Of a DNA stretch of 64,000 nt, positions 19,615-56,627 are shown in pieces. Origin of the DNA: a virus (lineage: Duplodnaviria > Caudoviricetes); IMG/VR virus record IMGVR_UViG_3300048854_000060, positions 6,604 to 70,603 of that record; one strand, given 5' to 3'. Both the position numbers and the translations under genes were made by a program. The notes under the pieces were generated by a model, which was given only the letters and a program-made list of their open reading frames with translations, was not told where the DNA came from and searched no databases. Position 1 is the stretch's first letter. Every line of letters begins with the position of its first letter.

Positions 19615-19641
19615 TCCTTCATTGAGATTCCCTTATGAGGA

Positions 19642-19694
19642 GCTGCGGCAGTCGGTAAGGGGCCGACGTTCGGATCGCGTATCCTAGCCGCAGC
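19642..19694 (-). ncRNA. Candidate three-way-junction RNA element
   Basis: 8-bp closing stem GCTGCGGC/GCCGCAGC plus two inner hairpins. Confidence 0.5.
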
Positions 19695-45437: not shown

Positions 45438-46159
45438 AGGTATTTCTCCGAAGGCAGCGTTGAGGTTTTAGGCGGGGCAGAACCTATCTGCCCGATATAG
45501 CCTGCAAACTTCGTCGCGTTGAACAGCGTTTCGGGCCGCAGGTACTTCGACCACTTCGGGTCATCGATCCACTCGATAACCTTGGCATCAATCACTGCTT
45601 TGCAGTCGTCTTCCGTCGCACCCTCATCGAGTCGAGCGCGAATGAACTTCAAGCTGGACTCCACAGGCTGATACGCACGTCCCGCCTTTTCGTTCAGGTA
45701 TTCCAAAATCTGCTTTGCAGTGTCGGGCTTGCCCGACGTAATACCGTCTTCGTCTTCGTCTTCGTCTTCGTCTTCGTCTAAGTGAGCAGTTGCAGGAACT
45801 TGCTTAGCAGGTGCTAACGGTTGCTTAGCGGTAGGTATCGGGTTCGGGCATTTGCTTTCTTTTGCACGTACCTGCTGGCGAAAGTCTGCAAGCTCTAAGT
45901 ACTGCTTAGCGGATACTTCGTAGACCAATGCGAGATCAGCCTTTTGAACCTCTTCAAGCCATTGCGCCACATCAGAATCGCTGACGGTATCTAAACGAAG
46001 CGGATAGCATGCGGCCCGAAGCAACTTCGGATTTGCGGAATAGCGCCCGAAGTCATCCACGACTGACATGAGTCGACGATAGAAAACTTCGGCCGCAGGC
46101 GAGAGCAGATCGACACGCTCGCTCGTCAAGATTCCTTCCCGAAGAATTCGAACTGGCAC
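45434..46159 (-). CDS. Replication initiator (conserved phage C-terminal domain)
   Basis: YLNEKAG..Y...I.ARL...YLRPETLF..KF.GY. Confidence 0.85.
   Translation of the reverse strand: MPVRILREGILTSERVDLLSPAAEVFYRRLMSVVDDFGRYSANPKLLRAACYPLRLDTVSDSDVAQWLEEVQKADLALVYEVSAKQYLELADFRQQVRAKESKCPNPIPTAKQPLAPAKQVPATAHLDEDEDEDEDEDGITSGKPDTAKQILEYLNEKAGRAYQPVESSLKFIRARLDEGATEDDCKAVIDAKVIEWIDDPKWSKYLRPETLFNATKFAGYIGQIGSAPPKTSTLPSEKYL
45745..45779 (+). repeat. (CGTCTT) x5.8 microsatellite encoding a poly-DE linker
   Basis: Directly visible. Confidence 0.9.
45801..45910. repeat. Candidate replication-origin iterons
   Basis: TGCTTAGC at 45801, 45822, 45903; variant TGCTAACG at 45812; inside initiator gene as in lambda O. 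Confidence 0.55.
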
Positions 46160-47744: not shown

Positions 47745-48548
47745 ATGGATATCAATGCACACCGCCGGGCGCGGTTACAGGAATTAGTCGACCAACGAGC
47801 TGCCGGTAACGTCGAGGAATTTGCACGCACGCACCCGCTCGCAGTTGGGGCTACCCGACTGCGGCAGATGCTCAATCCGAATTATCGGAACGGCAGCGGG
47901 TTCAAGGAAGGCGCGGCACGGAAGCTCGAGAAGGCGCTGAATTTGCCCGACCTCTATTTCGACCGTGGCATCGAGAGCGCGTTGGCTGCGGAGCACGAAA
48001 AAAGTATCCCCGATGCCTCGATCAGCGCACCAAATAGTGGCGTGATTGTTAAATCGAATGCGAGCGACATAAGTACTCTGGATGCAGGAGACCTACCAAA
48101 TCCAACATCCGAAGAGTTCGCTTTCGTGCCCCAATTAGATATCGCTGCGGCCTGCGGCAATGGCCGGTTTGAGGATCACGTCGTGGTCAAGGGCGGTCTG
48201 GCGTTCAAGAAATCATTTTTGCGCGAGAAAGGCGTCCCAGAACATGCCGCCAGGATCATCCACGCGTCTGGCGGCAGCATGTCTCCAACGCTTCAGGATG
48301 GGTGCGTGGTGCTTTTGAACCTCGCTGATACCGAGCCGCGAGACGGAAAAGTATTTGCCATTTGTAAGCCTGATGACGGCTTGGTGCTGAAGCGCCTCAT
48401 ATGGGATTTCCACCCCTCCATGGGACGCCAAACGTGGATTTTGAGAAGTGATAACCCTGACAAGATCGCTCATCCAGATAAAGTTTTGCCGCCCGATGAT
48501 CGGACAATGATTGCCGGCCGCGCTGTTTGGAACGACAATCAGCTATGA
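47745..48548 (+). CDS. cI: CI repressor with S24 peptidase domain
   Basis: N-terminal HTH; A.CG.G cleavage region; G.SMSPTL.DG; LVLKRL. Confidence 0.92.
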   Translation: MDINAHRRARLQELVDQRAAGNVEEFARTHPLAVGATRLRQMLNPNYRNGSGFKEGAARKLEKALNLPDLYFDRGIESALAAEHEKSIPDASISAPNSGVIVKSNASDISTLDAGDLPNPTSEEFAFVPQLDIAAACGNGRFEDHVVVKGGLAFKKSFLREKGVPEHAARIIHASGGSMSPTLQDGCVVLLNLADTEPRDGKVFAICKPDDGLVLKRLIWDFHPSMGRQTWILRSDNPDKIAHPDKVLPPDDRTMIAGRAVWNDNQL

Positions 48549-49229: not shown

Positions 49230-49256
49230 AAGCCCAGCCCCGAACTGGGCTTTTTC
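49230..49256 (+). terminator. Terminator of cI operon
   Basis: AGCCCAG/CTGGGCT stem followed by T5. Confidence 0.75.
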
Positions 49257-49335
49257 ATTCCTCCGGACCTTACCCGACCTTATCCATCTTATGGTCAGTG
49301 CCGCAAGTTTCGTCAACCGGCCCCTGCGCCGGGTT

Positions 49336-49533
49336 TCATTTCTGCCTCTGCGCAAACCCCTCCCGCCACAGCGTGGCACCGACCGACGTCAATAGCGCCA
49401 GGTCATCTCCGTACCGATCCCAATTCTCCGACAGCCAGCCAGCAAAGCCCGCTATCGCTTCGTCTAGCGGTATCTCGGCACGTCCCTCGATGTTCAGACG
49501 TTCAAAGATGGTGATTACATCGTCTGGCGTCAT
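49336..49533 (-). CDS. Small hypothetical protein
   Basis: GGAGG RBS; MTPDDVITIFERLN... Confidence 0.65.
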   Translation of the reverse strand: MTPDDVITIFERLNIEGRAEIPLDEAIAGFAGWLSENWDRYGDDLALLTSVGATLWREGFAQRQK

Positions 49534-49594
49534 GGGGCCTCCGTATTCGACCTTCAGTCTAGAACACGTCGTCGACAAAAAATTTATCGTTCAG

Positions 49595-49636
49595 CGATAG
49601 CTTTTGCTTGCGTTAAACGAGAGCGTTTGCTATTGT
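49595..49636 (+). promoter_or_regulatory. OL: two 18-bp operators with PL
   Basis: CGATAGCTTTTGCTTGCG (49595), CGAGAGCGTTTGCTATTG (49618); TTGCGT-17-TATTGT. Confidence 0.85.
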
Positions 49637-49674: not shown

Positions 49675-49818
49675 ATGAGCCAAGCGACATACAAGCTTTA
49701 CGAGCACACCTGCCGTGACGCCGGTTACTCGCCGCGCATCTCTCCTTGCCGTGCTTGCCTGTCGCAGATGTCGAAGAATGCCGTCGAGTTGGCGCAGCGC
49801 AAAGGCAAGCGGAACTAA
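49675..49818 (+). CDS. 47-aa first PL gene
   Basis: GGAGAG RBS; C...C..C, basic C-terminus. Confidence 0.6.
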   Translation: MSQATYKLYEHTCRDAGYSPRISPCRACLSQMSKNAVELAQRKGKRN

Positions 49819-49863
49819 AGGTCGAAACCGCCGCAGCTCATTGCGATGAAAAGGGGAAGGAAG

Positions 49864-50076
49864 ATGCTGAAAGACATGCACATCGGCGTTAGCCCGCTGA
49901 CTCAAAAGATCGTCGCGTATCGCGGAAAGAACGGGGTTGCTACGTCGAAGAGTGATGACCTGACGAGCGAGGCGGTTTTCTCAGTTGCTCATCTGATTCT
50001 GATGAGCGGCGAGCCGGTGACAACAGTTCTTGACGGTGAAGTGTTTGAACTTCGGATTCACGCTAAAGCGAAATAA
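49864..50076 (+). CDS. Hypothetical protein
   Basis: GGAAG RBS; IGVSPLT..I.A motif. Confidence 0.6.
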   Translation: MLKDMHIGVSPLTQKIVAYRGKNGVATSKSDDLTSEAVFSVAHLILMSGEPVTTVLDGEVFELRIHAKAK

Positions 50077-51340
50077 CTGTCTCCAACGTTAAGGCCTCGA
50101 GCCTTACCGATGCAGATAGCAACGCAGTAGAGGAACACAGGCGCAAGGCGTCGCCTGGTTGGGCAAGTGATCTTTAACCTGACTAGAAGGCATACCAGTA
50201 ATGGCGGGGCCAACGCGCTACCCCGGAAAAGATCGGCGCCTATCAGTGATCCGCCTGACCGACAGCTTCGGTTAAAGAACGGATCACTGATTGATAACCG
50301 CCGCACCTGAGCCGGAGCCAGCATAGCTGGGAGTAGCCGGAGTGGTGCGGCCACGCAGTTTCAGTGGAGCGCCCTAGAGATCCAGTGGGCGCGGCCTGAT
50401 GTGTCGGCAAATCCGGCGTCGGGCGACACGAGTGGTAGCGCACTCAAAATCAAAAACGCATAACGAGCGAACCGGTGTGAACTCCGGTGGCAGGGTTGGT
50501 GAACCTAACCTCCCTGTGATGTTTTCCCGAAGTGGCGATCGGGGTATAGGGCGCTCCACTGAGACTGAATCGAATTAGCCGCCGGCACGCGAAAGCGTGG
50601 GCTTGTTGGGGACGCCCGGTAGCACCCAACCCTCAAGTGAGCACGGGGAATTTTGCTGAACGACGTACAGCAAGTAGCTCATTAGCTCCGTCCGACTTGC
50701 CGCCGTTAGCGGCTCTGAATCCCTGAGCGCCCGGTAGATAGGGCGGCGCAACGCAAAGGTCCACGTCCCATGCGAAGCGCGGCTAAGACGTGGCGCCGGT
50801 GTGATAGCGAAACGCACTGACAGGCCGGAAAGTACGGTCCACCTGGCGCCAATGATGAGCGCGTCGCCGGACGATAGTAACCGGCATGAATTGATGGGTT
50901 GCGGTCGCGCATCCCTTAACCGGTGGCCTGGTAATCAGGGAACCCGCATCTTCCGAGTCTTGCAAGGCGTAGGCCCCGGGCACGGGACAGGAAGTCGAAA
51001 AGCGGAGAAATACGGGCGCAACAGTTGGGCGGCTGACACTCCGGAAAGACGGAGACTGATTTCTAGTGCCCCGGGTTGGACCACGGCGAACTTGTCTATT
51101 CGTGCGGTGGCGCAGTTCGATTCTGCGCAGGGGCGCCAAAGAAATTGCACCCAGGTAGATGGGCATCAAACCCCATCGGTGCGTGCGGCTCGCTGATCGA
51201 CGAGCAATAAAGACTTGATCTCCGCGCCCCTTAAAGTCGGGCTTGGCAAGCTGCGGATGGGGCCACACGGACGGGCGCCTTGCCGGACGCGTCGCCGGAT
51301 ACGTAACCGGCACCACGATTTCTCTTACAAATGCTGATTC
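50077..51340 (+). ncRNA. About 1.3-kb highly structured non-coding region
   Basis: No credible ORF; 16-bp and 12-bp perfect inverted repeats; many hairpins; repeated motifs. Confidence 0.65.
51068..51138 (+). ncRNA. tRNA-like element 1 (71 nt, CCA end, no D-arm)
   Basis: GCCCCGG/CAGGGGC-G-CCA acceptor; CGCAG-TTCGATT-CTGCG T-arm. Confidence 0.6.
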
Positions 51341-51411
51341 TCGCGAGTCGGTAGCGTTAAGGGATATCTGAAGCGGCGTTTATACCGATAAGTACTACTA
51401 ATGGAGTAATC

Positions 51412-51615
51412 ATGGCAACCAAGCAAGCAAAACCTGACTGGCTGAAAGCGAAAGTTCGCACATCGCGCATGACGATGGACATTGATGGCCCGCTCAAGTC
51501 AGCGCTGCCCGACATGATATACATGCTCGACGCAAAGGGACGCGAAGCGGTTATCGCAAAGATGCAAAGGCTTCACGCGGATATTTGCCAGCGCGAAGCA
51601 GAGCAGGCCGCCTAG
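51412..51615 (+). CDS. Hypothetical protein
   Basis: GGAG RBS; ORF track. Confidence 0.6.
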   Translation: MATKQAKPDWLKAKVRTSRMTMDIDGPLKSALPDMIYMLDAKGREAVIAKMQRLHADICQREAEQAA

Positions 51616-52557: not shown

Positions 52558-52832
52558 GGCGACTGACATGCAACCCAAAACCGATCTCGACGACTTTATC
52601 GAATTCACGCGCGCATGGCTCGACGAGCAGCAGAGCAAGCAGGATGCGCTAGATGAGGCGGCATGGCTCCGATTCCGCGCGAAGGTGCTGGGGCCGTTTG
52701 ATTGAATACTAAGCGACGGCCGCTGGAGTTTTGGTTATAAGCCGCAGCGGTGAGACGCCGCGACGAACTCAACGCGACACCTGCCGGGCCTGTAGTGGGC
52801 GCAAGGAGTGGTGCGACAGCCGGAGAGACGGC

Positions 52833-52983
52833 GCCCTGATGGATGCAGATGGCGGAATTGGTAGACGCAGGCGACTAGGGTAAATCGCAAATCGTTGATG
52901 AGCGAGGCGCCAGAACTCGGGATCGTAAAACCCGAAATCGCCGGCAGCTCCGGGTTCGAGTCCCGGTCTGCATCCATCAGGGC
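52833..52983 (+). ncRNA. tRNA-like element 2 (Leu-type D-arm, 63-nt anticodon loop, 17-bp acceptor stem)
   Basis: TGGCGGAATTGGTAGACGC; GGCGA/TCGCC; CCGGG-TTCGAGT-CCCGG. Confidence 0.8.
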
Positions 52984-53061
52984 CAAAGCGGATGTTGCGC
53001 GGAAGGCTGTACGAGTAAGCGCAGTGCAGCGAGTAACCCTGACAAACATTTCGGAGTACGT

Positions 53062-53277
53062 ATGGGACAGCATGCAAACGCCCGTGCCTGGGCAGAGTAC
53101 GAACGCCTTGACCGCAAGAGGCAGGAAGAGTCGTTTGAGGCCGAGCCGCCTTTGACCGAGGAAGAAAAGGTAGCCGCTTGGGATGACTCGTATTGGGAAC
53201 GCCTAGATGCTGTGGCTCGGTACGCAGCACCCGTTCGACATGTGGTGCTGTTCGATGAGATGGGGAGGGCGGGATGA
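53062..53277 (+). CDS. Hypothetical acidic protein
   Basis: GGAG RBS. Confidence 0.55.
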   Translation: MGQHANARAWAEYERLDRKRQEESFEAEPPLTEEEKVAAWDDSYWERLDAVARYAAPVRHVVLFDEMGRAG

Positions 53278-55495: not shown

Positions 55496-56002
55496 ATGGA
55501 CAAGCAAACAAAGACTCACTGGAAACGCCTCGTCAACCCGGACTATATCGGCGCGTATGCGTTGAACCCGGACGAGGACTTGACCGTAACAATTGACTAC
55601 GTGCAGCGCGAACAAATCACTGGTACGGGCGGCAAGAAGGAGGAATGCACGGTCGCGCACCTGGTTGGGCACAAGCCCCTCATTCTGAACGCGACGAATT
55701 CAAAGTCGATCAACAAGCTGTATGGCCCGTACATCGAAGACTGGGCCGGCAAGCAGATCACGCTGTACGCCAGCATGACCAAGCTGGCTGGCGATATGGT
55801 CGAGTGCTTGCGGATTCGACCCAATGTGGCGAGGCCGACCAAGCCGAAGATCGCGCCTGATCGGCTAAAGAAAGCTATCGCCTCGATCATCGCCGGGCAA
55901 TTCACGACTGAGCGACTGAGGGCGCAATTCGATTTGACCGATGAGCAGGAAAAGGACGTTGCCTCAGCCATCAAGACCGCCGTGGAGGGCACCAATGCTT
56001 AA
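55496..56002 (+). CDS. Putative recombination/ssDNA-binding partner of exonuclease
   Basis: LILNATN.K.I..LYG..IEDW.GK.ITLY motif; synteny. Confidence 0.55.
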   Translation: MDKQTKTHWKRLVNPDYIGAYALNPDEDLTVTIDYVQREQITGTGGKKEECTVAHLVGHKPLILNATNSKSINKLYGPYIEDWAGKQITLYASMTKLAGDMVECLRIRPNVARPTKPKIAPDRLKKAIASIIAGQFTTERLRAQFDLTDEQEKDVASAIKTAVEGTNA

Positions 56003-56627
56003 GGTTCGCTGCTCATCGCTGAGCAAGATCATGACGGAGCCAAAGAACAAGGGCGAAGTCCTTTCAGTCGGCGCTAAGACCTATGTAGAAGAACTCGCCA
56101 AAGAGTTTGTGTATGGATTCCAGCGCGTTATTACGTCAAAGGAGATGGAGAAGGGCCAACTGGTTGAAAACCACTCCATCGAGTTGATCAACGACGTGTT
56201 TTTCACAAGCTACGTGAAGAACACCGAGCGGCGTGAGAACGAGTGGATTACAGGCGAATGCGACATCTACGTCCCCGGGAAAAAGATCATCGACGTCAAG
56301 TCGCCCTGGTCACTCGCTACGTTCCCTGCCACGGTCTTCGCAGGACAGGACAAGGATTATGAGTGGCAGGGCCGCGGCTACATGATGCTGTGGGACGTTG
56401 ACCAGTTCGAAATCAACTACTGCATGGTCAATACGCCGGACGAGCTGATCCGGTTTGAAGATCCGGGGATGCACTACGTCGACCAGATTGACCCGTCGCT
56501 TCGAATCACTCGCGTGCCATACGAGCGCGATCGCGACCTTGAGGAAAAGATCAAGGTCAAGGTCGAGGCAGCCCGCGACTACTTCAATAAGGTTATCGAG
56601 ACGATCGGCCTTGAACACGCGGCTTAA
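55995..56627 (+). CDS. YqaJ/lambda-exonuclease-like protein
   Basis: G...E, TGECD....IIDVKS, YEWQ..GYM. Confidence 0.85.
   Translation: MLKVRCSSLSKIMTEPKNKGEVLSVGAKTYVEELAKEFVYGFQRVITSKEMEKGQLVENHSIELINDVFFTSYVKNTERRENEWITGECDIYVPGKKIIDVKSPWSLATFPATVFAGQDKDYEWQGRGYMMLWDVDQFEINYCMVNTPDELIRFEDPGMHYVDQIDPSLRITRVPYERDRDLEEKIKVKVEAARDYFNKVIETIGLEHAA

Follow-up and report, generated by a model that had tools for sequence, protein, structure and literature searches.

A boxA-led, untranslated array of structured RNA cassettes in lambdoid phages of Paraburkholderia

Antitermination in rrn leaders uses the elements boxB-boxA-boxC together with NusA, NusB, NusE, NusG, SuhB and S4, and the rrn boxA loads NusB/NusE, which results in Rho-resistant elongation on untranslated RNA. 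In phage lambda, whose corresponding arm has the order cI-rex-PL-exo, a boxB with a GNRA-like loop stands a few nucleotides after boxA and is bound by the arginine-rich N protein. The put RNA of HK022 (~70 nt, two hairpins) acts on RNA polymerase without boxA or Nus factors. Phage early leaders also give rise to small RNAs, as in the case of the P4 CI and P1 c4 immunity RNAs, which are processed from such a leader by RNase P. Large ornate RNAs of prophages are represented by GOLLD and ROOL (PMC12286853). The structured RNA cassettes described below form a real, previously undescribed and narrowly distributed family, found as a boxA-led untranslated array in lambdoid phages of Paraburkholderia; our literature search returned no description of this RNA element.

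The island lies inside the lambda-like immunity and early region of a phage known from a 70.6-kb IMG/VR virus record, one part of which was studied (the whole stretch of 64,000 nt, called the window). The phage host is Paraburkholderia, as judged by the presence of the same elements in prophages of P. elongata 5N and of a Paraburkholderia sp. MAG. The surroundings of the island comprise the following features (related loci are given by L numbers).

47745-48548, + strand: S24-type repressor (Pfam and ORF calls), followed by two small genes
49230-49252: intrinsic terminator (terminator scan), after the repressor and the two small genes
~49608-49636, + strand: candidate sigma-70 promoter of the early-left unit (TTGCGT, 17 nt, TATTGT), read from the sequence in the divergent control region
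51317-51411, + strand: conserved 5' leader of the first gene past the island (ORF 51412-51615), with 88% identity in L003 and 82% in L077
52706-53062, + strand: second, smaller untranslated island of the same operon (sequence; folding z -4.5; parts kept in L071, L074, L075 and L077)
55941-56627: exonuclease, which together with a methyltransferase is reached by the rightward unit of small genes

Since the gene order corresponds to that of the lambda arm, "early-left operon" is a fair label, and the placement given by the first-pass annotation is borne out by the repressor, the terminator and the rightward unit running to the exonuclease. The same annotation had put the island just downstream of PL; it does belong to the early-left unit, but the candidate PL-type promoter is located ~440 nt 5' of it, with two small ORFs in between. 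This promoter was not called at 49608-49636 by the consensus promoter scan and is therefore treated as a candidate. In L039/L073 the same promoter block, GCTTGCGTTAxACG..GCGTTTGCTATyGTTCA, is found directly upstream of the island, and a terminator with a TTGACA-type promoter directly precedes the island in L005, L006, L037, L039/L073 and phage KL4. At the other end, blocks resembling the 51317-51411 leader precede the first ORF in L070, L071 and L074-L076. A small reverse-strand ORF (MTPDDVITIFERL..., 49336-49532), divergent from the candidate PL promoter and kept beside the same promoter block in L039/L073, may encode a regulator; the 100-aa plus-strand frame overlying it (49298-49600) looks spurious.

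No credible gene is present between 50077 and 51411, in agreement with the earlier reading of the region as lacking a credible ORF. The only long frames, 50801-51196 (+) and 50783-51316 (-), gave no Pfam hit, and tblastn against 50,697 phage records returned nothing for them.

About 20 distinct related phage and prophage loci, from Paraburkholderia and soil viromes, were gathered via flanking proteins, pattern scans (conserved hairpin, M2), DNA searches and a T-arm scan. The DNA searches gave matches in 9 of 400 Burkholderiaceae genomes and in 5 of 213 Paraburkholderia genomes. In pairwise comparison, blocks of 80-94% identity are separated by unalignable or inserted stretches, and the region is a mosaic of cassettes, not one 1.3-kb RNA.

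50116-50183, + strand: M1, rrn-leader mimic consisting of AGCAACGCAGUA, a hairpin and boxA UGAUCUUUAAC (50167-50177); boxA-like sequence in the corresponding place of at least 13 islands
50185-50298, + strand: M2, five-helix domain including a perfect 12-bp stem (13 sequences, covariation)
50301-50351, + strand: hairpin H, three stacked helices with the internal loop AG opposite G(A/U)GUAG (15 sequences)
50352-50572, + strand: M3, 22-pair closing helix around six or seven hairpins, after the linker GCAGUUU (homologs L029, L037, L002)
50568-50714, + strand: M4, without support as structured RNA (only a 21-37 nt match to L005; folding z -0.6)
50715-50890, + strand: M5, GACA plus GAAAGUA-loop hairpin, and a terminal hairpin with ACGAnnGUAA loop (homologs)
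50891-51065, + strand: M6a, mostly unsupported (folding z +1.3; only 50891-50940 matches L040 and L042)
51066-51140, + strand: tRNA-like element T (sequence and fold; conserved with its flanks in L084)
51141-51316, + strand: M7, paralogous to M5, whose first and last hairpins it shares (direct repeats D1, D13 and D15, and alignment)

By sequence comparison, four of these cassettes are conserved: M2, H, M3 and M5/M7. M3 shows 87% identity in L029 (Paraburkholderia sp.) and L037 and is found partly in L002. M5 is present in L003, L016 and L004, with its 3' half in phage KL4 and L043, and homologs of M7 are found in L041, L071, L081 and L084. M4 and M6a (50568-50714 and 50887-51065), together ~320 nt or roughly a quarter of the region, lack conservation, short matches aside, as well as unusual folding; the 3' end of M6a carries a GACA plus GAAAGA-loop hairpin (51033-51056), which is kept in L084. 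The cassettes are independent of one another and vary in order (L002-L006, L016, L019, L029, L037-L041, L070-L077 and L084), and the length of the islands ranges from ~360 nt (L006) to ~1.4 kb (L071). The relatives also hold blocks foreign to the window, for example domains with UUCGUGAAUGGCG/CGCCAUUCACGAA or GGCGUGGCGAUUG/CAGUCGCCACGACC as closing sequences; tRNA-like cloverleaves occur in some domains of the second kind. Cassettes are joined by a recurring linker, YUGCAGUUUU, and the GCAGU motif occurs 3.4 times per kb inside the islands vs 1.1 outside, with a strand bias of 38 vs 14.

A BLAST search of the region against phage records returned only a 65-nt match, in Burkholderia phage KL4 (L078), which has a related leader at the same position. 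The reverse-strand hypothetical protein AWD90817.1 of KL4 (L078 2283-2678; MH128984 7942-8337) overlies the terminator-promoter-leader region homologous to the 3' half of M5 and is probably a mis-annotated non-coding leader. Many hits of the hairpin H pattern in viral, genome and metagenome collections were discarded as chance matches in coding DNA of unrelated organisms.

The conserved modules are folded as RNA, more than expected by chance. In the M2 alignment of 13 sequences, compensatory double changes are observed in 17 of the 31 pairs, and no shuffle matched this result. The 12-bp stem of M2 (50242-50253/50280-50291), reported as perfect by the first-pass annotation and found so here, is swapped wholesale for other perfectly paired sequence in L005, L039 and L071. 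The loops AGAAG, CAACG, GAAAAGAUCGG, CCUAUC, UAWAGAAC and GAUUGA of this domain are invariant. In the case of hairpin H, where the 7-bp stem noticed earlier is formed by CCGCACC (50301-50307) and GGUGCGG (50345-50351), pairing across 15 sequences is kept at 98.5%, vs 10-53% with slid partners (0 of 500 shuffles match), and double changes occur in 7 of 9 pairs. Both inner helices of H covary, the outer helix covaries in the combined M2+H alignment, and the internal loop is unchanged across all 15 sequences. The combined alignment (7 sequences) contains 46 pairs in 8 helices, with double changes in 22 of them; 96.5% of positions remain paired vs 26-41% with slid partners, and none of the 500 shuffles was as good.

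The consensus fold of M3 has 65 pairs, and covariation is seen only in one variable hairpin, which stays paired. The perfect 16-bp inverted repeat recognized earlier is contained in longer arms (50356-50376/50547-50567, 21 nt, 95% complementary); the five hairpins said to lie within it become six or seven in the consensus fold, closed by the 22-pair helix. For M5, 5 of the 46 pairs are compensatory in 4 sequences. The evidence from compensatory pairs is strong for M2 and H; there is little covariation in M3 and M5 because these cassettes are too conserved. The RNA is read on the + strand. The M2 alignment contains invariant G-U pairs (e.g. in 13 of 13 and 12 of 13 sequences), and an invariant G-U pair would be an A-C mismatch on the other strand.

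The boxA closing M1 is identical in its core to the host's own rrn boxA: the 10-nt core UGAUCUUUAA of the window boxA is the boxA core of four rrn leaders in the host genome G002, which carries the island. The host rrn leaders, retrieved via the 16S model, carry UUGAUCUUUAAAAA and read UUGAUCUUUAAAAAUUAACAG ~95 nt past each rrn promoter (four leaders); a search of the host with the E. coli boxA pattern gave nothing adjoining rRNA. In respect to position 2, phage and host rrn boxA both have A, unlike the gamma-proteobacterial consensus GYTCTTTAANA (PMC5725501). The boxA-like sequences GAUCUUUAAC, GCUCUUUAAC or GUUCUUUAAC occupy the equivalent place in the at least 13 islands mentioned above, and where a promoter is recognizable (L005, L006, L037 and L039/L073) boxA follows it by ~40-70 nt, with the cassettes next. 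The related leader of KL4 has no obvious boxA. Upstream of boxA there is a hairpin, whose stem sequence varies among loci with the pairing kept (judged by eye). Downstream, M2 opens in most homologs with a CCC-GNRA-GGG hairpin ~16 nt past boxA; in the window the corresponding hairpin is CC-AGUAAU-GG, ~18 nt downstream, with a loop that is not GNRA. No boxC (UGUGUGGG-like; GUGUGGG) was seen after boxA in the window, and GUGUGGG is present in the host leader. The phage part of the window contains the exact GATCTTTAA only at 50169 (+), and no second boxA was found downstream of the rightward promoter.

One Paraburkholderia rrn leader (L068, ~1270-1320) shares AGCAACGCAGUA with the start of M1, upstream of the common boxA, at a place where the other leaders have GCAGCGACGCAGAA. 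The M2 loop GAAAAGAUCGG (50226-50236) is complementary over 7-8 nt to the boxA GAUCUUUU (50167-50177) of the phage and of the host rrn leaders; a pairing of the loop, as AAAAGAUC, with boxA was considered and is not supported, as the loop does not compensate where boxA varies (L016, L038 and L070).

The factor-independent, put-like antitermination suggested by the first-pass annotation is not upheld: an island that opens with a host-identical boxA core points to antitermination of the Nus-factor/boxA type, in which Nus loading would take place as on rrn leaders. Where 1.3 kb within an operon are free of ribosomes, Rho-resistant elongation of the boxA type would be needed. The earlier remark on the N gene holds, in that an arginine-rich N-like protein was not seen among the phage ORFs.

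Element T (51066-51140) is made up of an acceptor helix of 5-7 bp, a single long central hairpin, a T-arm (GUUCGAUUC) and an encoded CCA, and has no D-arm; its folding z-score is only -1.4. The embedded tRNA mimic noticed earlier is therefore recognizable by its T-arm, acceptor helix and CCA, but tRNA-finding tools do not call it: ARAGORN reports 0 tRNA genes in the window, and the Rfam tRNA model gives no hit at E <= 10 in 49800-51600 or 52650-53100. The "tRNAs" predicted by ARAGORN in L002 and L016 were likewise not confirmed by the Rfam tRNA model. In the second island, a GACA plus GAGAGA-loop hairpin is followed by a tRNA-Leu-like element (52834-52983). This element combines an exact tRNA-Leu D-arm (UGGCGGAAUUGGUAGACGC) and a canonical T-arm with an acceptor helix of 17 bp, its anticodon loop carries an insert of 63 nt, and it has no Rfam hit.

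Insert-bearing elements of a similar kind were encountered elsewhere. In 74 unrelated viral contigs (L086-L159) the tRNA-Leu D-arm is followed, after 60-90 nt, by GGUUCGAGUCC, the normal spacing being ~35-38 nt, and the tRNA model gives those checked 33-49 bits across ~115-130 nt. Some belong to phage tRNA clusters; a GAAAGA-loop hairpin stands ahead of some, resembling the one before the tRNA mimics of the window; in L140 a sub-threshold YrlA hit adjoins the insert-bearing tRNA-like element. Such RNAs may constitute a widespread class.

No described Rfam family matches the island. The tRNA, YrlA, GOLLD, ROOL, OLE, raiA, HEARO, C4 and other Rfam models gave nothing credible at E <= 10 in the region, and a scan of eight homologous loci gave nothing at E <= 0.1. 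The gathering-score scan of the window with Rfam 15 returned a single hit, an int-alpA RNA (RF02996, 48 bits) at 19630-19694 (-), on the edge of the phage late region. A Y-RNA reading was dropped, as there is no YrlA (RF02553) hit in the window or its islands and no Ro60 (TROVE) gene; TROVE is absent from the phage record and from four island-bearing host genomes, with control genomes positive.

In RNA libraries, contigs identical to 50195-50365 and 50701-50971 are present in a soil metatranscriptome, where DNA carry-over is possible and other phage genes are found at similarly low depth. In a root metatranscriptome contig, the end of M3 is joined directly to M7. The contigs show that RNA libraries contain relatives whose cassettes are ordered differently, and they do not prove transcription. 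Logan contigs carry no RNA ends, strand or level, and neither the higher depth at ~50397-50522 (one soil metatranscriptome) nor the uncovered stretches are taken as evidence. A short acidic-repeat coding stretch of the window (45745-45779) is matched by many unrelated metagenome contigs (depth 140 vs ~17), which is a low-complexity artefact.

With moderate confidence, we interpret the island as a part of the early-left transcript that is untranslated and protected by boxA, and that would yield several stable structured RNAs acting on host factors. The first cassette copies the leader of the host rRNA operons and ends in boxA; if it works as in rrn operons and in boxA-led CRISPR arrays, RNA polymerase would be loaded there with NusB/NusE and other Nus factors. 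Shielded in this way from Rho-dependent termination, the enzyme could traverse more than 1 kb of ribosome-free RNA, and folding of the nascent RNA would be helped. The cassettes that follow (M2, hairpin H, the helix-closed M3, M5/M7 and the tRNA-like element) may be split by host enzymes: RNase III at the closing helices of 13-22 bp, RNase E at the recurring GCAGUUUU linkers and RNase P at the tRNA-like elements. The step AG|UUU agrees with what is known of the preference of RNase E in Salmonella. Helices of RNase III substrate size (13-22 bp), GCAGU linkers and tRNA-like elements together suggest cutting into stable pieces, in the manner of pre-rRNA, and the outcome would be a set of presumably stable small RNAs acting on host factors. 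The array of processed RNAs put forward in the first-pass annotation thus fits the mosaic and its cassette-wise conservation, the cutting itself being something we infer, far better than the single large RNA offered beside it. Our leading guess is that the RNAs would act as decoys or sponges, with tRNA-directed or other RNA-binding proteins of the host as their targets. A more far-reaching version is offered only tentatively, as we hold it to be rather doubtful: an rrn-mimicking "RNA cassette array", exchanged between phages like protein-coding morons, whose processed tRNA-scaffolded or helix-closed RNAs would counter RNA-directed defences or RNA-binding regulators of the host in the role of decoys or sponges.

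The boxA, M2 and H could instead make up a cis-acting leader, either a composite nut-like or put/EAR-like antitermination element or a riboregulator of the downstream early genes, with the other cassettes as optional passengers. The 5' end of the island is always taken up by M1 and M2, which directly follow the promoter if one is visible, the shortest islands (L006, L045 and L049) consist of promoter, boxA, an M2-like domain, H and ORF, and the CCC-GNRA-GGG hairpin at ~16 nt from boxA in most homologs recalls the boxA-boxB spacing of lambda nut. However, unrelated domains take the place of M2 in L004/L002, L019 and L037, where boxA stays, the hairpin loop of the window (AGUAAU) is not GNRA, and neither an arginine-rich N-like protein nor a second site in the rightward operon was seen. 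A cis-acting leader would also leave unexplained another 1 kb of conserved cassettes and the tRNA-like elements. We regard it as unlikely, giving it roughly one chance in five.

Two further explanations are considered improbable. The conservation of helices by compensatory changes over many sequences and the strand-specific invariant G-U pairs argue against structures that act as DNA (single-strand origins, recombination or packaging signals) and against a region that is decaying filler, even though M4 and M6a look like filler and mosaicism with recombination at conserved junctions is a feature of lambdoid genomes. The promoter and boxA directly upstream, the tRNA-type T-arms, which are RNA motifs, and, weakly, the RNA-library contigs point the same way, and this explanation has a very low probability. 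Hardly more probable is that the whole island folds as a single large ornate RNA like GOLLD or ROOL, perhaps as a multimeric particle. A size of ~1.3 kb, many helices with conserved loops, AGUA-type motifs, phage origin and nearby tRNA-like elements would suit such an RNA, but its cassettes are swapped, lost and reordered among relatives, in islands of ~360 nt to ~1.4 kb, no conserved long-range helices connect them, and the Rfam models for GOLLD, ROOL, OLE and raiA gave no hit.

If the boxA-protected array is the correct interpretation, it adds covariation-supported RNA families (M2, H, M3 and M5/M7) that are absent from Rfam, it means that non-coding cassettes are shuffled between phages like protein genes, and it represents a phage borrowing the host rRNA antitermination signal for a long untranslated RNA, rather than for genes via N. 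The P. elongata 5N prophage and Burkholderia phage KL4 offer tractable systems, and anti-defence via tRNA mimicry is a possible role.

By mechanism, the closest analogies would be the rrn leader and boxA-led CRISPR arrays, with which the island shares a host-identical boxA core and a position at the head of a long structured untranslated transcript; a hairpin also precedes its boxA, and the embedded tRNA-like elements and long closing helices also resemble pre-rRNA. Unlike an rrn leader, the island is part of a phage early operon, shows no boxC and yields no rRNA. Lambda nutL is similar in having a boxA and in its genomic place, in the early-left unit past the cI operon with its terminator, but here N is not recognized, no canonical boxB stands beside boxA, more than 1 kb of cassettes replaces the N gene, and instead of the nutL/nutR pair the phage part of the window has only one site. 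Like HK022 put, the island is structured RNA close to where an early phage operon begins; it is set apart, by description, by its boxA and by a structured part that is far larger and modular. GOLLD and ROOL are likewise large, elaborately structured, phage-borne and found beside tRNA-type elements, whereas the island has no Rfam match and is a shuffled set of cassettes rather than one conserved fold.

tRNA-like domains that have a canonical T-arm and long closing helices (L016, L004 and window 52834-52983) are reminiscent of YrlA Y RNAs and of phage tRNA clusters, although neither a YrlA nor a tRNA model hit nor a Ro60/TROVE gene accompanies the tRNA-like domains of the window and islands. Compared with P4 CI and P1 c4, the island has no C4 family hit, the phage has an S24-type protein repressor, and no target repeats complementary to the cassettes were seen; the likeness lies in small stable RNAs that would derive from an untranslated phage early leader. 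By biology, these leader-derived phage RNAs and the phage tRNA clusters appear to be the closest analogies.
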